Part shown: positions 2,713 to 11,750 of the stretch, piece by piece
Position numbering within the stretch: the stretch's first letter is position 1
Layout: the number at the start of each line of letters is the position of its first letter
Source: an uncultured bacterium
Lineage (GTDB): Bacteria; Hydrogenedentota; Hydrogenedentia; Hydrogenedentales; JAEUWI01
Direction: 5' to 3'
NCBI GenBank assembly: GCA_963977445.1
Contig: CAXBPH010000220.1
Coordinates: 1-11,750 of the forward strand
Length of the DNA: 11,750 nucleotides
Translations under genes and position numbers: made by a program
Notes under the pieces: generated by a model
Databases searched by the model: none
Told to the model about the DNA's origin: nothing
The model's input: only the letters and a program-made list of their open reading frames with translations

Positions 2713-3375
2713 ATGCATGAATACACGGCCAATAATGAAACGTCCTTTCTTCAACCTTCTTCACGTATTGACATTAGCAATCGGCATCTACCCCATTGGC
2801 AACTTGATGGGGCTTTTTACTTCGTAACCTGGAGATTGGCCGACGCACTTCCGCAATCGAAGTTACACGCGTGGAAGAAAGAAAGAATCGAATGGTTGAG
2901 AGAACATCCCAAGCCGTGGAACGGTTCTACCCGGCGGGAGTACAAGAAACGCTTTCCAAGGCGAAGCGACGAGTGGCTGGATCGGGGCTATGGCGAATGT
3001 GTTTTGCGCACCCCACCGTACGCTCAAATAGTCTTCGATGCTCTCTTACACTTTAATGGGGCGCGCTACGATATGGCGTCATTCGTTGTCATGCCAAACC
3101 ATGTCCACACGCTGTTTCAATTGCGAGGTTCCTACTCGGTGGAAACGTTGGCGCAGTCCTGGAAAGGCTATACTGCCCGGCGTATCAATCAGAAGCTAGG
3201 GAGAAGAGGTGTTTTGTGGCAAGCGGAATCCTGGGACCGACTTCTGCGCGGTGTCGACGACCTGAAACGTTGCTTTTTCTATATTAAACAGAATCCTGCG
3301 ATGGCGGGACTGAAGCGAAGCGAATACATGTACTACGAAGTGGAAAACCATCTACCGGAATCCTTCACCGAGTAA
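2713..3375 (+). CDS. REP-associated tyrosine transposase (RAYT/TnpA-REP, Y1 HUH, IS200/IS605 superfamily)
   Basis: HLPHW...YFVTWRL N-terminus, HUH motif VVMPNHVH, SWKGYTARRIN, LWQAESWDRLLR and catalytic Tyr in YIKQNP. Flanked by REPs, no tnpB. Confidence 0.92.
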   Translation: MHEYTANNETSFLQPSSRIDISNRHLPHWQLDGAFYFVTWRLADALPQSKLHAWKKERIEWLREHPKPWNGSTRREYKKRFPRRSDEWLDRGYGECVLRTPPYAQIVFDALLHFNGARYDMASFVVMPNHVHTLFQLRGSYSVETLAQSWKGYTARRINQKLGRRGVLWQAESWDRLLRGVDDLKRCFFYIKQNPAMAGLKRSEYMYYEVENHLPESFTE

Positions 3376-3523: not shown

Positions 3524-5080
3524 TTATTTCTTCCAGACCAAGGCCTGACCATCCTCCAACAAGCGCGCCTGCAGTGCCGCCACATCGATATCCTGAACCG
3601 CCACGTCACCATCAATGGCCATCACGGCCGCCGTTGCTGCCGACTGTCCCAGCACCATGAACACGGGCTCCATACGGATAGAGCCATAGGCAATGTGGGA
3701 GGCCGAGAGACATACGGGCACGAGCAGGTTGGTGGCATCTTTCTTCGCGGGACGGATAGAGCGATAGGCTATGGGATAGGGACCGAATCCGCCTACTTGC
3801 ACATCGCCCTCATTGATGACCCGGCCGTCTTTCACGTAGCGTTGCATATGGTGCGAGTCCATCGTGTAGGCTCCCAATCCCACCGCGTCATCAATTTTCC
3901 GCGTTCCCACACAGTTCTGCTCGATCATCACGTAGTCCGAAATCATGCGTCGGGCTTCGCGCACATAGAGCTGATGGGGCCAGCCGCCGTTGTCGAGAAA
4001 CTCATCCTTCGGCAGCCCCCATTGCTGCATTTCTTCGTGGACCGCCTCCGGCACGCGCGGGTCGTTGGCCAGAAAATACATGAGGCCCTGCTGGTAATCT
4101 TTGTGTGCCTGGATGATGCGAGCCCGCGTAGCGTAGTCACCGTCAGGATAGTCGTAATTTCCACCGATGAAGTCGGTCGCGAACGCGCCTTTGTTGTTCG
4201 TATCCGTCTTGGAATTTGGCATGGTCTTGGAGAGTTTCATCACGGTCCAATGGCCGGCCTTTAGATAACGGAGCAGCAACTCATAGTTGAAGGCATCGTA
4301 GTTTTCCGGCTTTGGGAAGGGCAGACGGTTCGCCGGGTCATTGGTCAGACACATGCGAAAACAGTAGCCCTGCACACGATGATCACCGCTTCCTTCCTCG
4401 CCCGGCACCTCTTCCTGAATATTGGGAAGGAGTCCGCTGGACGGGTCACCGGGTGTCACATAGGGGTCAATGGGCACGACAAACTGATGATACTTCGCCT
4501 GCTTCGTCTGGACGCCGTTGAGCGTTTCCCCGTAGGTCGCGTTGGACTCACGTCCCACGTGGTAGGGCACATCCGCCAGGGCCATGAGGTCGCCTTCGTA
4601 GGTGGCGTCGATGAATACCTTACCACGATACTCCTTGCCGCTCTCCATTTTGATAGCGGTAATAGCACCATCCTTTTTGGTCACGCCATTCTTAAGATCA
4701 AGACGTTCTCCAAAATCCACGGGAGTTTTCGTTTCTTCGATGAACTCCTGGAATATGCGCTCTGCAACATGGGGCTCGAAGGTCCAATTTTCTTCGTTTC
4801 CGTAATGCTTGCCCAGACGCTTGTAGAAGTCCCGGGAGATGCCGCCGATGGCCGCTTTGTTGCCAATGTCGGTAGCACCCAGCCCCCCGGCGCTGAGTCC
4901 ACCCAGATGCTGTCCCGGCTCGATGACGATGGCCGTCTTACCCATTTTATGGGCCTGGACCGCCGCCACGACCCCCGCAGATGTTCCGCCGTAGATAACC
5001 AGATCATAGGTCTTTTCCGCTGCAGATGCGTGAAGACTCGTTGCACAAATCAATAAGAGAGCACTTAAACTACGTAACAT
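3524..5080 (-). CDS. Exported FAD-dependent oxidoreductase (FAD_oxidored-type family)
   Basis: Rossmann motif DLVIYGGTSAGVVAA, HLGGLSAGGLG, FIDATYEGDL, LYVREARRM, SASHIAYGSIRMEP. Start moved from 5107 to ATG 5080 because of the AAAGGAG RBS at 5089-5095 and the signal peptide MLRSLSALLLICATSLHASA. Confidence 0.88.
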   Translation of the reverse strand: MLRSLSALLLICATSLHASAAEKTYDLVIYGGTSAGVVAAVQAHKMGKTAIVIEPGQHLGGLSAGGLGATDIGNKAAIGGISRDFYKRLGKHYGNEENWTFEPHVAERIFQEFIEETKTPVDFGERLDLKNGVTKKDGAITAIKMESGKEYRGKVFIDATYEGDLMALADVPYHVGRESNATYGETLNGVQTKQAKYHQFVVPIDPYVTPGDPSSGLLPNIQEEVPGEEGSGDHRVQGYCFRMCLTNDPANRLPFPKPENYDAFNYELLLRYLKAGHWTVMKLSKTMPNSKTDTNNKGAFATDFIGGNYDYPDGDYATRARIIQAHKDYQQGLMYFLANDPRVPEAVHEEMQQWGLPKDEFLDNGGWPHQLYVREARRMISDYVMIEQNCVGTRKIDDAVGLGAYTMDSHHMQRYVKDGRVINEGDVQVGGFGPYPIAYRSIRPAKKDATNLLVPVCLSASHIAYGSIRMEPVFMVLGQSAATAAVMAIDGDVAVQDIDVAALQARLLEDGQALVWKK

Positions 5081-5208
5081 AAATATCACTCCTTTAGAAT
5101 CAGGCACGACAGCCGGCCAAGTTCCGCGTCGTACACACGCCAGTCAATGTATATCCAGGGAAGACTGGGCTCCATCGCCCCCGCCAACCATACAAGCAAC
5201 GCTGCAAT

Positions 5209-7212
5209 CTACTTCACCGGCCAACTCGCCCGCAGTGGACTTTCGAAGAGGCCCATCTTCTCCAGCGGAATCGGCTTGAAGCCCAATTTCAGTGCAGGCG
5301 ACTCGGGCTTGAGATGGTAGTCGTGCTTTTCCATATCCACAAAAAGCGGATCGGTATCGCTAAGGTTGTCTTCATACGCGATGTAGGGCTCGGCGTCTTC
5401 GTTCACGTCTTTCCAGCCCTCGCCCACGAAAATATTGCGGGCGACGAGGTTGCCCACCGGTGCGGCGGGTTCGTTGTCGATTATGTTAACCAGCTTGGGA
5501 TAGCGCTCCGAATAGGGCGGCTTGTTGTAGGCAATGCCCTTGAGGGTGCCCTTCTCCTTTTCCTCCGCAATCCACTCATCAGCGTGGCCATGGGCCCACC
5601 CCAGGGCACGGGCATCGATGTGGAGGGCCTTGGTGCAGTTGATGAAAATATTATTCTCTACCGTGCAATCGCGCCCGCCCCCGATGAAGGCCGCGCGGTA
5701 GACATTGCGAAATACATTGCCCACCATATCCGCCGACGAGAACATATCATCGAGATAAATCCCCACGCAGCCCTTGTCCTGATAGCCGTTGATGTCGTAG
5801 AGGTAGTTGTAGCGAATCATATGGCCGCGCTGGGTCCAGTCACGGCCCGTATATAGGGCGCCGGCATCGTTGGACTCAAGGCACACGTCGTGTATTTCGT
5901 TGAGCTCGATGAGGTGGTCGTTGCCGCCAAACCCAATGGCCATGTGGGGCGCATCATGAATGTAGTTATTCGCCACGCGATTGCCTACGCCCTGCACGTG
6001 AATGCCCGCCGCATAGACCCGCTTGATCGCTCCGTAGTGATGGACATGGTTGTTTACGGCAAAATGCCCTGCCGGCGTCAGTGTCGTGCGGTCCCCACCG
6101 CTGATACTGATGCCGGACGATCCCATACCATAGATATCGCAGCCCTCAACGCCGCAGTCTTTACCGCCACTCACCGAGATGGCACCACCGCCACTGTTCC
6201 GCACGGTGAGCCCGTTGATGCGCACCCCTTCCCCATCACGCACCGACACGACCGTACCCCGCGTGCCTTCCATGGTTATTCCCTCGATGGTCACATAGGA
6301 CGTCGTATCCAGGCTGACAAGATTGGGCAACAGGGTGACCATGACTTCGACACCAGCCGGATCGGCGGGCGGCCAGAAATAAAGCTGCCCCGAATCCCGA
6401 TCAAGAAACCACTCCCCGGGGCTATCCAGCTCACTGAGCAGGTTATAGGCGTAGTAGTAACCGCCCTTCCGATAGCCGTAACCATGGTAAGGCTCTTTAA
6501 CGGAAATCACTTTATTTTCTGTATCGATCGACGCTACAGGATGGCGCTGTTCGGACCAATCCCAGAACCAATAGCCATGGAGCCAGGCATCGGGCTCTTC
6601 CAGCCAGCGCTCGGGACGTGGATCATCGTAGATGAATTTTCCCGTCTTGCTGCCCTTTCGCCCGTGAATCTCGTGACCATCCTTTTCCACCACATCGACG
6701 ATATCGACGAAGCCTTCATTGGGCCAGCGCGACAGGGTCATACGATTGCCGTCAAAGAAAAGCTCCACCCCGCCACCGGCCGGGGTCCCAAATTCTGTAA
6801 TTCCCATGGCCGTCAAATTTATTTGCAGGACGTGGGGGCGCGCCGAAGAATCGAGACGAGACAGCGTTGCCTCATCCGTCACCGGGGTAAATCCCGTCAG
6901 CAGGCGACCACCCAGCAGGCGTGCCTCCTCGGCCCTATCGGCGATATAGCGAATTGGGGCTTCCGGCGTGCCAGAGTCCTGCGCTTCCAGGGTGAAAGGC
7001 TTCTCCAATACATAGTCGCCCCCGTGAATCCGAACATCGGCACCCTCGGGCAACCCATCGCCAGCACGGGCCGCGCGGATGGCATCCCGCGCACCTTCCA
7101 AGGTCGTAAAAGCACCTTCGGCACCGTCGGGTGAAACATGGAAAACCGTTGGCGCACTGTACACAGCGAATAACGGCAAGATAGAAACGAAAAGAAAACT
7201 CCAACGTCGCAT
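5209..7212 (-). CDS. Exported right-handed parallel beta-helix protein (pectin-lyase fold, possibly GH141-like)
   Basis: Signal peptide, FTTLEGARDAIR, SRWPN, ELDSPGEWFLD, repeated parallel beta-helix-like motifs (NNHVHH, NNYIHD, NEIHD, DAGALY, GIYLDD). GGAG RBS at 7221-7224. Substrate cannot be determined. Confidence 0.85.
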   Translation of the reverse strand: MRRWSFLFVSILPLFAVYSAPTVFHVSPDGAEGAFTTLEGARDAIRAARAGDGLPEGADVRIHGGDYVLEKPFTLEAQDSGTPEAPIRYIADRAEEARLLGGRLLTGFTPVTDEATLSRLDSSARPHVLQINLTAMGITEFGTPAGGGVELFFDGNRMTLSRWPNEGFVDIVDVVEKDGHEIHGRKGSKTGKFIYDDPRPERWLEEPDAWLHGYWFWDWSEQRHPVASIDTENKVISVKEPYHGYGYRKGGYYYAYNLLSELDSPGEWFLDRDSGQLYFWPPADPAGVEVMVTLLPNLVSLDTTSYVTIEGITMEGTRGTVVSVRDGEGVRINGLTVRNSGGGAISVSGGKDCGVEGCDIYGMGSSGISISGGDRTTLTPAGHFAVNNHVHHYGAIKRVYAAGIHVQGVGNRVANNYIHDAPHMAIGFGGNDHLIELNEIHDVCLESNDAGALYTGRDWTQRGHMIRYNYLYDINGYQDKGCVGIYLDDMFSSADMVGNVFRNVYRAAFIGGGRDCTVENNIFINCTKALHIDARALGWAHGHADEWIAEEKEKGTLKGIAYNKPPYSERYPKLVNIIDNEPAAPVGNLVARNIFVGEGWKDVNEDAEPYIAYEDNLSDTDPLFVDMEKHDYHLKPESPALKLGFKPIPLEKMGLFESPLRASWPVK

Positions 7213-7379: not shown

Positions 7380-9179
7380 TTATTTTTCAATCGTGAATTC
7401 GTCGCGCAGCGCACCTTCGATGTCGTAGGCCTTGTAGGTCAGCTTATTGCCGTCGATTTTAAGATCGAGGACCTGATAGGTGGAAACGTTGGTCATGCCG
7501 AATTCGGTGTAATCGAAATCACCCTGGTCGTAGTGCTTCGTTCCAGAAACGGAGACGATATAGATCGTGCCTTCGGCTGGTGTTTCCACTTTCGCATCGT
7601 TGTTCATGGGCCAGGTGCGCAGGTAGGCGTGGTCATGTCCCTGCAGGGCCAGATCGACGTGGTATTTATCGAAAAGGGGACCCCAAACTTCGCGAATTTC
7701 TGGATTATTGCGGTCCGCGCCAGAGGAATAGGCCGGGTGGTGATAAATCGCAAACTTCCACAGCTTATCGGAGGCCGCCAATTGGGCATCAAGCCATTCC
7801 ACCTGATCCGCCGGTGCCACGTTGGAGTCGAGCACCACAAAAAGGGCGTTGCTGTATTCAAAGTGGTAGGCCCGCTCCGGCGTCACGCCTTCGGGACCAT
7901 TCAAAGGCAGGTTGAAGAGGGACAAATACATCCAGGGACCCTTGTCGCCCTGGTCCTCGTGGTTGCCAATGGCCGGAACCAGTTGTTTCCGATTGAAAAT
8001 GCCATCCGCGTTGTAGAAAAAAGTATCCCAGTCATCCCGCTCGTTGCCCCGGTTAATCAAATCGCCCGCCATGATATAAAACGCCGCGTCAGGTTCCGCA
8101 GCATAGGATTGATGGGCCAGCTTGCCCCACGTGTCCAGACCATTTTGGGCATCGCCCATATAGATAAATTTAAACGGCGTATCGCCCGCAGGGGCCGTAA
8201 CAAATTCGACCGGCTCGCTCCAACCGATGACGGAGCCATCTCCCACTTCATACTCATACACCGTGCCGGGCTCCAGGCCAATGAGGTTGACGACATGGCG
8301 ATTGATGATGGGGTCGTTGATGGTGTTGTGGCTGACCAGGGGCGTCATCGTCGCGGCGATTGTAATCCACCGTTCCGCAGCCTCGCTACCCGGTAACTTT
8401 TTCAAACGGTAACGGAGTGCCGCCTGGTCGATAGCCGTGCTCGTGCGCCACTGCACCGTCTGGGTGGTCTTTGGGTCGCCGGTCCACGTGAGTACCACCT
8501 GATCGGGCGCTTCGGTCGCCGGGAAGTCGGTGGTCTGATAGACGTTGGTCAACTTGGCCGAGCGGCGCTTGTTTTCGTTTCCACGAAAAAGGGTCTGCCC
8601 CGCGAGCGCTTCCGGTACGGCCGTCAGTCGGGTTTCGTCCCAACTCACATAGACGCGCTCTCCCTTATTGAAGTTGCCTACCGTATACTGGCCCGGATAA
8701 ATCTGGTCGATATTGATAATATCACCGCTGTTTTGTGGCGTCATGACCGCGAAATAATGGTCGCCATCGCCACTCAATGAGTTGACACCCAGACCGATTT
8801 CGCCAGCGGGAAAATCTTTTCGCCAGCCTTCATAATCCCCGTCGTCCGAGGAAGCAATCAGATCGGTCTTTTCAAAACCCCGATCTCCCAGCCAGAAAAC
8901 CACTTCGCCCATGTCGGCCTTGCGAAACACATACAGGGTCACCGGCACATTCACCCGGAAAGTCACGTGCTCTTGCCCGAGCACATGACGCTCGTCTTCG
9001 GTGAGGGTTGCGTAGACTTTTTCTACCGAAATATTCTTCAATTCTTCTTCCGGCAGGGTCTGCTGCAGACGCTGTACAACCCCGGCGACCGTGTCGTGGA
9101 CCGAGGGGTGGTTGCCCACGTGGGCCTGGGCGGCGTTGGCCATGGTGAGAACAAGGAGGAGTCCGAAGAGACGACGCAT
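7380..9179 (-). CDS. Exported metallophosphoesterase with FN3-like (purple acid phosphatase N-terminal) domain and an extra N-terminal domain
   Basis: Calcineurin-like motifs MGDAQ, AGDLIN, GNHE, YHHP, QGHDH. FN3-like PDQVVLTW...HVVNLIGLEPGTVYEYEVG. Start moved from 9251 to ATG 9179 because of the GAAAGGA RBS and signal peptide MRRLFGLLLVLTMANAAQA. Confidence 0.88.
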   Translation of the reverse strand: MRRLFGLLLVLTMANAAQAHVGNHPSVHDTVAGVVQRLQQTLPEEELKNISVEKVYATLTEDERHVLGQEHVTFRVNVPVTLYVFRKADMGEVVFWLGDRGFEKTDLIASSDDGDYEGWRKDFPAGEIGLGVNSLSGDGDHYFAVMTPQNSGDIINIDQIYPGQYTVGNFNKGERVYVSWDETRLTAVPEALAGQTLFRGNENKRRSAKLTNVYQTTDFPATEAPDQVVLTWTGDPKTTQTVQWRTSTAIDQAALRYRLKKLPGSEAAERWITIAATMTPLVSHNTINDPIINRHVVNLIGLEPGTVYEYEVGDGSVIGWSEPVEFVTAPAGDTPFKFIYMGDAQNGLDTWGKLAHQSYAAEPDAAFYIMAGDLINRGNERDDWDTFFYNADGIFNRKQLVPAIGNHEDQGDKGPWMYLSLFNLPLNGPEGVTPERAYHFEYSNALFVVLDSNVAPADQVEWLDAQLAASDKLWKFAIYHHPAYSSGADRNNPEIREVWGPLFDKYHVDLALQGHDHAYLRTWPMNNDAKVETPAEGTIYIVSVSGTKHYDQGDFDYTEFGMTNVSTYQVLDLKIDGNKLTYKAYDIEGALRDEFTIEK

Positions 9180-9333
9180 TGGGAATTCCTTTCGAGGGTA
9201 CACCCGTATTTGTTGGGAAATCTGGGGCGTTTTGTTGCAGCGAACGGACAATCACTCACGCCATTAGAGGCTTCCGGTACGTAGATTGAGGCTGCAGATC
9301 ATTTTGTTAAGTGTAGCGAGTGATTGTTCACGT

Positions 9334-9489: not shown

Positions 9490-10470
9490 CTATCCACGTG
9501 CTCCCGTGCGACGGGCTAACATGACAAGCCCCAGGCCGAGAAGGGTTAACGTCCCGGGTTCGGGAATGGGTGCCTGCACCGTGTGGATGACACCTATCGC
9601 GTCCAGATCCACGCCGCCACTCCCCCAGGTGACCCAGGCATCGTAGATGGGATTCCCGTAGGCGTCGAGGAAGTCGCCACTACCGGGTATGTCGACCAGA
9701 CGAACGTAGCCAACGTTGTTGAGGTCCAGGGTCCCGTTCTGCACGAGGGCGTGTCCCGACAGTTCCTCCAAGTCAAAGGGCGTCCCCCAACTCTGACCGG
9801 CCGTATTGGCGTGTTTGCCCGCCAGGTTGTAGTAGCCCGTAGGATCTAAGGTGCCATAGGCCCCAACACGCTCGTCTTGCAAGGCGTGGGCCGCAAAGCG
9901 GGCAAAATCAATCCCGTTTGACGACACTTCCACATAGGCCAATTCCCCAAACAGCATGCCTTCCACCGGCCCCAACGGGGGCACTATATAGTTGGTGAAA
10001 AAGCCGTTTTCGAAGATGGCAAAGTCCGCGCCGAAGCCATTCCCGATGCCCGTGTCAAAGGACATGGTGATCTGGCCGGGTCCGGGATTATTCACCGGAT
10101 CGGCGAGCCACGCGTTGATCTGCGATTGCGTCAGGTCACCAAGGGAGACGATATCGCTGTTACTGCCCGTAACCGCCCCCGTGAGTTTTCCCGGTGCCTG
10201 GAAGGTCGCCGACACCCCGGGAGCCGGGCTGTAGTCCGTGTACCCGGTTGCCCAGGCCGCGAACAGGGGATTTACATAGTTATTCGCCGTTGCTCTGCCG
10301 TCCCCGTCGGGTCCGACAAATCCTGCGATGGGATTGTCATAGGGGTTCGCATCATTGGGGTTCGCTATGCCGCCCGAGTAGGGGCCAATGGTGTCGGCCC
10401 CCGCAACGGATGGGATACACGACAATGCCAATAGGGTCCAATATGCAGTTATAGTGTGTTTCTTCTTCAT
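9490..10470 (-). CDS. PEP-CTERM-sorted cell-surface protein, candidate cobalamin-binding protein
   Basis: Signal peptide MKKKHTITAYWTLLALSCIPSVAGA and C-terminal IPEPGTLTLLGLGLVMLARR (PEP, TM helix, Arg cluster). Core motifs YSPAPG, VSLG, ITMSFD, GADFAIFEN, ELAYVEVSSNG, FDL, YVRLVD. Lies downstream of a B12 riboswitch. Binding function is inference. Confidence 0.9.
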   Translation of the reverse strand: MKKKHTITAYWTLLALSCIPSVAGADTIGPYSGGIANPNDANPYDNPIAGFVGPDGDGRATANNYVNPLFAAWATGYTDYSPAPGVSATFQAPGKLTGAVTGSNSDIVSLGDLTQSQINAWLADPVNNPGPGQITMSFDTGIGNGFGADFAIFENGFFTNYIVPPLGPVEGMLFGELAYVEVSSNGIDFARFAAHALQDERVGAYGTLDPTGYYNLAGKHANTAGQSWGTPFDLEELSGHALVQNGTLDLNNVGYVRLVDIPGSGDFLDAYGNPIYDAWVTWGSGGVDLDAIGVIHTVQAPIPEPGTLTLLGLGLVMLARRTGARG

Positions 10471-11017
10471 CTTGTGCTACATGCTCCACGTTACCCACAG
10501 CACCTTCGCCGGGGTCAAAGAATTAATGAAAGAGGGGTGATTGAGGGCGACCAGGCTCGTTGAATAGGTCGCGTTGCCTGCTCCATCCTTTCCGACGCTA
10601 TACGTCACAGTTTCTACGGTGAACATCGCGTGACGATGGGAGAAACGGAATCGAAAGGAGGGCGGGACAGGCAGGACGCAACTCCCCCACGCGCAACGTA
10701 TGGCGAAGAAGTTCTATCACTCTTGTCCGGACCGACCCTACCCTCGAGGATTCGATTCCCCATCGCTATGGCGATGTTGGAATCCGGTCGGTCTTCGGAA
10801 ACGCAACCGACCGCAACCTGTGCGGTCGATACCTGCGTTCCTGAACGTTCTGAACCTCCGGAAACCAATTGGGTTTGAGGTGCAGAAAACGTTCAGCCAG
10901 AGCGATGAACACAGGTGGAGGAGGGTGAAGGGAGCTGCAAAAGACCGAACAGGGCTGCGAACCGAAAACCGGGCTCAACAGCGCACGACCAGACGTGAAC
11001 GTTGCAGCGCCACAACA

Positions 11018-11349
11018 GCCTTTCCCACGAAGGCACAATCGTAGCTGGCACCAAATCGGCACCTCGATTCACGGGTAGGTCTTCGGACTTACAGGCGGAC
11101 CACGTATTCACGTGGATGTCTACTGGCCATCGCTTCCCAGTCCATAACGGACCAGTGCTTGCATCGCACCGTGTGTGCAATGGATGGCGGTCGTTCCTGC
11201 ATACCGCTGCGGGGCAGTCCCGGATTTTCACATCACCCATGCTGACTTAAAATCAGCATTCGGTGACCGCACTATCGACGTTTGCCAATAACGCGCGGGT
11301 TCCCTTTTCATCTGTATGGACCCATAGGGCCCAGACAGAACCAATGAAC
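11018..11349 (-). ncRNA. Cobalamin (AdoCbl-type, class I) riboswitch
   Basis: Minus strand in order: TGGTTC, P2 hairpin (11311-11339), TGAAAAGGGAACCCG, GTGAAAATCCGGGACTGCCCCGCAGCGGTA, GCACTG...ACTGGGAAG, AAGTCCGAAGACCTACC. Core spans 11067-11349. P13 GCCTT-cgtggga-AAGGC (11018-11034) has a loop that can kiss L5 CCCGC. Confidence 0.95.
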
Positions 11350-11360
11350 TAACGGAGCGG

Positions 11361-11481: not shown

Positions 11482-11503
11482 AAAACAACGGGCCTTCGGC
11501 CCG
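11482..11503 (-). terminator. Candidate intrinsic terminator upstream of the riboswitch promoter
   Basis: Minus strand CGGGCC-gaa-GGCCCG followed by TTGTTTT. Confidence 0.5.
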
Positions 11504-11750
11504 ATGCAGGCGGGCCGCCTGCGCTCCCAATTGTCAAAAGCTACCTTACAGCGATAGGGGCCAAGCCGCCGGTACGTTCGCCTTTTTGCAGGCGATTGCG
11601 TGCACTGCCAAAACTAACGAACTGAATTTTACCGAGGTCTACCTTCGCTTATTTAATCACTCAAAAATGCCCCGCTGCACCTGAATCGCGCAGCGGCTGG
11701 ATTCAAGTACTAAATGCAACATGCTGTATTATTCGTTGTTCAGTGAGGAC

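Follow-up and report, generated by a model that had tools for sequence, protein, structure and literature searches.

A two-hairpin insertion splits P4 of a cobalamin riboswitch upstream of a gene for a predicted BtuH-like protein in one Hydrogenedentota lineage

The window analysed here, 11,750 nucleotides of a 7.1-Mb genome from the Hydrogenedentota (G000), carries on its minus strand a cobalamin riboswitch in which the 5' strand of P4 is broken after the fourth base pair by 64 nt while all ten P4 bases are kept, giving the order CCCG-[64 nt]-G-UGAAAAU-CCGGG. We regard this as a new structural variant of the RF00174 class, namely a clade-specific expansion of two hairpins that is constrained in structure and free in sequence, at a P4 site for which no description was found. 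The reading that we consider probable is a working-type class-I switch with a lineage-specific 'variable insertion' that would turn P4 into a four-way junction, the insert itself being passive and without an input of its own. Overall, the insert looks like a tolerated structural add-on and not like a new kind of sensor.

The riboswitch was identified with cmscan, which matched RF00174 to positions 11360..11057 of the minus strand over model positions 1-189 of 189 (67.6 bits, E 2.8e-15; gathering score 31.5 bits). It was the sole Rfam family in the window at the gathering threshold. The parts of the switch that surround the insertion are the following.

11057..11360, minus strand: cobalamin riboswitch aptamer RF00174, full length (cmscan).
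11304-11300, minus strand: J3/4, GGGAA (aligned to the model consensus GGGAAcccG; invariant in the four orthologs).
11299-11296, minus strand: 5' strand of lower P4, CCCG (invariant in the four orthologs).
11295-11232, minus strand: the insert, 64 nt (sequence reading and fold).
11268..11295, minus strand: insert hairpin 1, 12 bp including 4 G-U pairs, AAAC loop (fold; alignable in the four orthologs).
11232..11267, minus strand: insert hairpin 2, 6 + 9 bp with a 2x1 internal loop (fold, -18.3 kcal/mol, z -6.05).
11231, minus strand: closing G (sequence reading).
11230-11224, minus strand: L4 T-loop UGAAAAU, intact (sequence reading).
11223-11219, minus strand: 3' strand of P4, CCGGG (sequence reading).
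11207..11217, minus strand: P5/L5 (CUG-CCCCG-CAG), the kissing-loop partner (identical in the four orthologs and in the canonical switch of genome G025).

Infernal assigned the extra bases to a loop insert state and aligned GCG to the consensus GUG. A first, sequence-only reading of this DNA had placed them between the fourth pair and the closing G, and on the sequence evidence that placement is the better one, since it keeps G-UGAAAAU-C whole and the orthologs agree with it. The conserved core, comprising J3/4 GGGAA, P5/L5 and the B12-box region, matches the consensus, is invariant in the four orthologs and is common to the canonical G025 switch. The switch resembles class-I (AdoCbl-type) members of RF00174 in J3/4 GGGAA, the bases of all five P4 pairs, the L4 T-loop sequence and P5/L5, as well as in the P6 extension and the region of the B12 box. 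A candidate kissing loop between L5 and L13 and a downstream gene related to B12 are further points of resemblance. It differs from them in that the 5' strand of P4 is split by a two-hairpin arm (59-64 nt across orthologs) and in the unusually long leader that follows the aptamer (~590 nt to the ORF), which holds a further conserved structured element. Four cobalamin riboswitches are present in G000, and only the one at this locus is long. Its score is the lowest of the four (78.8-103.8 bits for the three paralogs) but lies 36 bits above the Rfam threshold, so that the concern that such a switch may score poorly in standard searches was not borne out.

Read on the minus strand and set beside its orthologs, the insertion proved real and located in P4 as first described. 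When the insert was folded alone, two abutting hairpins filled it exactly, leaving nothing unpaired at their junction or at the ends of the insert, in agreement with the sequence-only reading. Its minimum free energy was -31.5 kcal/mol, compared with a mean of -14.85 (sd 2.79) for dinucleotide shuffles (z -5.97), none of 200 being as stable, and 3 of 146 windows of the same length from its own leader reached the same stability. Searched alone against Rfam, the insert matched no family at permissive E-values. A 151-nt contig from an independent public run (X2) spans positions 11194-11344 free of gaps, and the DNA is confirmed by public runs X1 and X2. The near-identical X2 contig, whose depth was 2 so that single errors are possible, differs at 4 of 151 positions, all within the insert; two of the differences lie in loops and two in the stem of hairpin 2, where they keep pairing (A-U to G-U, U-G to U-A). 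Misassembly was ruled out by the independent X2 contig across the insert and by the same architecture in three orthologs; together with the shuffle statistics, these data exclude both chance and misassembly as the source of the structure. The sole RNA run found (X3) covers positions 11186-11224, within the conserved core, and derives from a relative.

A search for homologs with P4 inserts returned three orthologs that share the insertion point and carry two-hairpin inserts of 59-61 nt: G004:C11 (302 nt, 66.6 bits), G003:C13 (277 nt, 61.8 bits) and the metagenome contig L182/M182 (69.0 bits). G003 and G004 belong to the same genus as G000. RF00174 was present in 60 of 61 related genomes, and its span was at least 277 nt at three loci only, all of them in that genus, with the remainder at 249 nt or less. 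The insert clade therefore comprises three of nine searched genomes of the genus together with one metagenome contig; the other six genomes had neither the downstream gene nor an insert-type switch with the queries used. All four copies read CCCG-[insert]-G-UGARAAU-CCGGG, with A or G at one T-loop position, and in each the insert is exactly filled by two hairpins. The inserts compare as follows (fold energies on the sense and antisense strands; leader windows as stable as the insert).

G000 insert: hairpins of 28 and 36 nt; -31.5 sense and -16.9 antisense (kcal/mol); 3 of 146 leader windows as stable.
G003 insert: hairpins of 26 and 33 nt; -34.8 sense and -29.6 antisense (kcal/mol); 0 of 148 leader windows as stable.
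G004 insert: hairpins of 26 and 35 nt; -31.4 sense and -31.8 antisense (kcal/mol); 0 of 147 leader windows as stable.
M182 insert: hairpins of 26 and 33 nt; -31.3 sense and -19.7 antisense (kcal/mol); 0 of 148 leader windows as stable.

The fold had initially been taken to be specific to the transcribed strand, given its G-U pairs (6 of 27 in the G000 insert). This holds for G000, whose antisense strand reaches only -16.9 kcal/mol, and the asymmetry is also clear in M182, but it is not general, being weak or absent in G003 and G004.

The two hairpins differ in how much of their sequence can be compared between orthologs. For hairpin 1, covariation of the kind that the sequence-only reading had proposed to look for could be seen, with two of nine consensus pairs changed on both sides and one broken cell, in a sample of four sequences that includes two close relatives and for which statistics are accordingly thin. 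For hairpin 2 no such comparison was possible: the ortholog sequences could not be aligned and the consensus fold failed, yet each folds as a hairpin of 33-35 nt. Pairwise identity among the four orthologs was 62-98% in the aptamer core, 54-93% in hairpin 1, 31-64% in hairpin 2 and 36-78% in unconstrained leader, such that hairpin 2 diverges about as much as unconstrained leader. The hairpin loops are likewise unconserved (AAAC, GAAA or GUCU in hairpin 1; UUA, GAAUACG, CCU or AUC in hairpin 2). Since the two-hairpin fill is kept in all four copies while sequence and loops drift, comparison of the copies indicates that the architecture of the insert is selected and its sequence is not. Hairpin lengths are similar across orthologs (26-28 and 33-36 nt), and this steadiness could hint at a constraint beyond that of doing no harm.

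Genome G025, from another family, carries a canonical cobalamin riboswitch of 228 nt (101.2 bits) located 267 nt upstream of a homologous protein domain. This switch shares peculiarities of L5 and the B12 box with the insert lineage and shows a clean alignment gap exactly at the insert. Because a related canonical switch thus lacks precisely that segment, the alignment identifies the insert as a derived feature of one clade. A metagenome scan in which P4 was defined as YCCG/CCGGR with a 42-72-nt gap gave two loci in the whole collection, the L182 ortholog and a T-loop-interrupting case at L181, which is a count and not a rate. In a contig scan for GGGAA, a 44-74-nt gap, and the T-loop and L5 motifs, a pattern that also matches canonical switches with a chance upstream GGGAA, none of the 119 loci listed (123 matches) had a T-loop parted from its own J3/4; the loci were rejected as insert cases, being canonical switches with a chance GGGAA upstream or non-riboswitch sequence (L069, L107, L111, L139, L157). 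As a rough estimate, if ~3% of canonical switches carry a chance GGGAA, such inserts would be rarer than roughly 1 in 1,000. A phylum-wide RF00174 search found a match in 128 of 135 genomes; it covered all but the 73 weakest matches and is thus uninformative on long variants.

The secondary structure of P4 agrees with the earlier proposal of a new junction beside the T-loop, and would take the form of a four-way junction. In the isolated P4 domain of each of the four orthologs, lower P4, hairpin 1 and hairpin 2 were predicted, the pair probabilities of lower P4 being 0.74-0.99. By contrast, when the full-length aptamer was folded, the lower-P4 pair probabilities of the four orthologs were 0.28, 0.27, 0.05 and 0.00 and that of the closing G-C pair was ~0, whereas four canonical switches given the same full-length treatment had lower-P4 pair probabilities of 0.73-1.0. 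The lone closing pair, which would cost ~2.7 kcal/mol, was never predicted. In a nearest-neighbour model of the whole aptamer, then, the insert does weaken P4. Such a model ignores the energies of T-loop and junction stacking, and for this reason we treat the weak full-length P4 as a caveat and not as a refutation; at the level of the model, it keeps alive the readings of the insert as a tuner and of the switch as weakened. P4 has been described as having 'exactly five paired nucleotides' and a T-loop cap and as part of a double-T-loop substructure (Barrick & Breaker 2007, PMC2258182), and the L4 module as a highly conserved T-loop that directs global folding (PMC6158498; PMC7367189). Pairing of the insert with P5/L5 was considered as a conserved feature and rejected (z -0.02, -1.32, +0.39 and -2.94 across the four copies). 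It was strong in M182 alone, where 3 of 300 shuffles did equally well; the signal in G003 was weaker, and G000 and G004 showed none.

The riboswitch lies in the leader of the regulated gene, which is roughly 900 nt long. Downstream of the aptamer, the leader and the gene contain the following features.

11018..11034, minus strand: candidate P13 hairpin (loop …UGGG…/…CGGG… complementary to L5 CCCG; conserved in the four orthologs).
11013..11017, minus strand: conserved UUG/GUG start codons (2-4 nt after P13).
10730..10793, minus strand: conserved structured element of ~64 nt (alifold, 23 pairs, 2 changed on both sides).
9490..10470, minus strand: 326-aa secreted PEP-CTERM protein with a BtuH-like predicted fold (PEP-CTERM motif and AF2 model).

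The candidate P13 lies ~25 nt after P1, and by sequence complementarity its loop could pair with L5, a pairing in which this window shows a change from G-C to G-U. A purine-rich stretch in the 3' arm and loop of the hairpin resembles a Shine-Dalgarno sequence (GGGAAAGG). The UUG/GUG codons that follow open leader ORFs of 12-123 codons whose peptides are unconserved. To judge from these sequences, the candidate P13 and the leader start resemble a translational OFF switch of the common L5-L13 type, whose target would be a leader ORF ~540 nt upstream of the main gene; control of leader ORFs by B12 riboswitches has been documented in Mycobacterium (PMC11260477). The structured element at 10730..10793 is 65-94% identical among orthologs, against 36-45% in the flanking leader. 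Positions 10400-11100, this element (10793-10730) included, had no match in Rfam at permissive E-values.

In the protein encoded at 9490..10470, Pfam and NCBIfam searches found the PEP-CTERM motif alone, with no further Pfam domain at E up to 10. Between the three insert-bearing genomes its identity is 71-72%, and homologs at E <=1e-5 were found in 4 of 61 related genomes, these three and G025. The protein belongs to a large unnamed family with 2,270 members at E up to 0.001 among 8,000 proteins scored, whose tails are of the PEP-CTERM, VPLPA-CTERM, dockerin or RTX type; the closest named homolog among those 8,000 comes from a Candidatus Hydrogenedentes MAG. An AlphaFold (AF2) model built from 32 homologs reached a pLDDT of 86.3 and a pTM of 0.81. 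Among 48,161 chains, its best structural match was 7biz_B (rank 1; Z 12.0, rmsd 3.1, 164 residues aligned to chain residues 318-593, the C-terminal domain), followed by 8blw_B (Z 11.1), with generic jelly-roll modules at 8.8 or below. In BtuH2, it is the globular domain at the C-terminus that binds B12 (PMC8941943), and chain B of 8BLW is BtuG1 with a fused BtuH domain (PMC10404256). A profile of the 32 homologs showed no sequence homology to BtuH or BtuG1 among PDB sequences at E up to 1; the matches that it did return were to DARPins and were rejected as chance. The protein is thus comparable to BtuH and the H-domain of BtuG1, the surface B12-binding lipoproteins of Bacteroides (7BIZ, 8BLW), in its predicted fold, in being secreted or surface-anchored, and in its position behind a B12 riboswitch. 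It differs from them in having a PEP-CTERM anchor and not a lipobox, in lacking Ig-like and beta-propeller domains, in coming from a lineage outside the Bacteroidota and in showing no detectable sequence similarity. On the structural model, it is a likely extracellular B12 binder. A B12 switch upstream of such a protein makes biological sense, which argues that the switch is alive.

The reading that we favour can be set out as follows. One lineage would have gained a 59-64-nt insertion between P4 pairs 4 and 5, on the immediate 5' side of the T-loop's closing G. Because the bases of the five pairs and the T-loop sequence are kept and the insert has no linker bases, the outcome would be a perfect four-way junction of lower P4, hairpin 1, hairpin 2, and the closing pair with its T-loop. 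Lower P4 and the T-loop cap may stay coaxial, which would preserve the five-pair-plus-T-loop geometry for docking of T-loop on T-loop, while hairpin 1 may stack on hairpin 2, with both directed away from the ligand pocket. For the insert itself, selection would then act on compact folding only, so that it does no harm, leaving sequence and loops free; that selection spares both is the reason for which we assign the insert no input of its own. Binding of B12 would stabilise the L5-L13 kissing loop as in other class-I switches, and the kissing loop would hide the purine-rich ribosome-binding stretch and the leader start codon, such that less B12-capture protein is made when B12 is plentiful.

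Occupancy of one phosphodiester in four of four orthologs by an arm of similar hairpin lengths, despite turnover of its sequence, would also be expected of a selected functional module, for example a docking site for protein or RNA, a folding timer or a tuner. In one form of this idea, the ~60-nt gap might delay or weaken formation of P4 and the T-loop and thereby shift the B12 concentration or the corrinoid range that is sensed; the modelled P4 formation (0.00-0.28, versus 0.73-1.0 in canonical controls) is what a tuner would produce, and small peripheral changes are reported to alter the selectivity of cobalamin riboswitches (PMC7367189). We nevertheless judge a functional module to be rather unlikely, as loop and bulge sequences are conserved in neither hairpin, the drift of hairpin 2 is that of neutral leader, the insert has no Rfam motif, its pairing with P5/L5 is not conserved and no extra partner gene is evident at the locus. 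The unconserved loops, the drift of hairpin 2 and the lack of an Rfam match equally leave without support the initial suggestion that the insert could change corrinoid selectivity or add a second input, and nothing points to a new ligand. A more specific proposal, which we think distinctly unlikely, is that docking of the L4 T-loop depends on how the four-way junction stacks, lower P4 being placed either on hairpin 1 or on the T-loop cap. Pre-organisation of the aptamer would then be conditional (for instance on Mg2+, on temperature, on a protein or on how fast transcription proceeds), and the B12 threshold or corrinoid range would be retuned. If true, this would be a natural riboswitch tuned via an engineered-looking junction in its folding module, and one that controls a surface B12-capture protein.

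Equal folding of the G004 copy on both strands (-31.8 antisense, -31.4 sense) is what a DNA palindrome would give, and would fit an origin of the insert from a small mobile palindrome (MITE/REP-like) that entered the riboswitch DNA, with the hairpins as its inverted repeats and not a product of selection on RNA. No dispersed copies were found in G000, G003, G004, G006 and G008 with three insert queries, however: the insert is single-copy in these five genomes, with no off-locus match at E <0.06 and next-best matches at E >=0.067 over 25 nt or less. It also consists of two separate hairpins in place of one long inverted repeat, contains G-U pairs in G000 (6 of 27) and M182 (4 of 23), where the antisense strand folds 12-15 kcal/mol worse, and has acquired structure-preserving substitutions. 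This explanation, which we rate as very unlikely, concerns origin alone and is compatible with the favoured reading. MITE or palindromic insertions in riboswitch loops are similar in that an insert able to form hairpins occupies a peripheral arm while the riboswitch stays intact; here, the insert is single-copy, has two hairpins and strand-specific G-U pairs, and has been inherited vertically with structure-preserving changes. Decay of the switch, with docking of P4 and the T-loop broken and B12 no longer sensed, would be consistent with its Rfam score, the lowest of the genome's four (67.6 vs 78.8-103.8 bits), and with the weak pairing predicted for lower P4 in the full-length fold. The aptamer core is nonetheless 62-98% identical among orthologs, against 36-78% in the flanking leader; L5, the candidate L13 and the T-loop are kept, and the G-C to G-U change retains the loop-loop pair. 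With a BtuH-like gene linked in all four loci, as with the canonical G025 switch, and a score 36 bits above threshold, a dead or decaying switch seems highly improbable.

The sequence-only reading had further held that P4 and its T-loop are compact and that extensions fall in P2 and P6, which is too strong. Barrick & Breaker (2007, PMC2258182) report that in some cases a helix interrupts the GNR triloop of the T-loop in the P4 loop, and the unrelated metagenome switch at L181:1514-1554, upstream of a TonB-dependent receptor, is of this published kind, with a 41-nt helix within U-G-A^G-A-A-U (z -3.3). Such cases are alike in adding an unconserved paired element to the P4/L4 arm of an otherwise normal switch. 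They have one helix inside the T-loop; here the T-loop is contiguous in all four orthologs, and the insert lies one pair lower, between the two closing G-C pairs, and forms two hairpins. Identity with the published T-loop-interrupting helix was therefore ruled out, UGARAAU being unbroken and the insert ending 5' of the closing G. The 'variable insertions' described in the same paper fold into stable stem-loops and, in complex classes, sometimes stand 'at unusual positions'. The present insert is similar to these in its long unconserved sequence, stable stem-loops, defined site, intact core and lower covariance-model score; its site was not found among those given for the class in the text of the paper. 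No description of an insertion between the two T-loop-closing G-C pairs was found in the literature searched, which included passages of PMC7367189, PMC6158498 and PMC2258182, although published alignments and the Rfam seed may show some.

With the insertion point between the G-C pairs that close the T-loop, the P4/L4 folding module has a second site at which a large insertion is tolerated in nature. Knowledge of this site can serve the modelling of structures, the covariance models, which now misplace such inserts, and engineering, for example with tags or fused aptamers. The four orthologs amount to a natural experiment on a small scale, in which architecture is fixed and sequence is free. 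The regulated gene, for its part, points to a BtuH-like family under B12-riboswitch control outside the Bacteroidota; if the protein binds corrinoids, B12 capture of the BtuH type would extend to environmental phyla.

The gene putatively controlled by the riboswitch encodes a PEP-CTERM protein, and three genes lie downstream of it on the same strand:

9490-10470, minus strand: 326-aa PEP-CTERM protein, BtuH-like, putatively riboswitch-controlled
7380-9251, minus strand: purple-acid-phosphatase-like metallophosphoesterase
5209-7212, minus strand: beta-helix protein
3524-5107, minus strand: FAD-dependent oxidoreductase
2713-3375, plus strand: ORF matching PF01797 (IS200-like Y1 transposase) at E 7.2e-9, ~8 kb away from the riboswitch

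A homology search with the 326-aa protein, which scored 2,270 matches, placed it in a large family without a Pfam domain; the loci listed with it are L039:2307-3353, L040:2199-3212 and L186:1411-3714. The top structural match of its AF2 model was the B12-binding protein BtuH2 (7biz_B, Z 12.0), followed by the H-domain of BtuG1, another B12-binding protein (8blw_B, Z 11.1). In G025, a genome of another family, the domain of the 326-aa protein recurs, joined to Big_12/CopC-like domains in one ORF of at least 768 aa, with a canonical B12 riboswitch on the 5' side of this fused ORF.

In all four orthologous riboswitches, hairpin 2 of the P4 insert was compared with the P5/L5/P6 strand of the same RNA. 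The 3' arm of hairpin 2 from the metagenome contig M182 (L182:1525-1557, minus strand) is complementary to the P5/L5/P6 strand downstream, forming a duplex of -32.9 kcal/mol that 3 of 300 shuffles equalled. The same complementarity, weaker than in M182, was seen in the same-genus genome G003 (L039:1601-1633), and none between this arm and the P5/L5/P6 strand was found in the window's own genome or in G004. It may reflect chance, or a relic of the hairpin's origin. An unrelated, AT-rich metagenome riboswitch at L181 (86.4 bits), followed by a TonB-dependent receptor gene, carries a 41-nt helix (L181:1514-1554, within the region L181:1501-1563) that interrupts the triloop of its L4 T-loop, together with a second insert of 78 nt in the P6 extension. 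The T-loop helix is of the same type as the insertion described by Barrick & Breaker in 2007 (PMC2258182).

Around the riboswitch, the transcribed strand carries further elements:

11672-11696 and 11489-11503, minus strand: two terminator-like hairpins with U tails, upstream of the riboswitch
11013-11034, minus strand: candidate P13/L13 hairpin, then conserved UUG/GUG starts
10730-10793, minus strand: structured conserved element of ~64 nt, mid-leader

As the terminator-like hairpins would stop an upstream transcript, the riboswitch promoter would lie between ~11489 and 11360. The mid-leader element, for which Rfam returned no match, has 23 consensus pairs and 65–94% identity, versus 36–45% in its flanks. 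The conserved UUG/GUG starts open short leader ORFs of 12–123 codons, which are themselves not conserved, and the main ORF starts ~540 nt further downstream. Together, the candidate P13/L13 hairpin, the conserved starts and this distance suggest that the gene is controlled via leader translation or else by Rho-type polarity.
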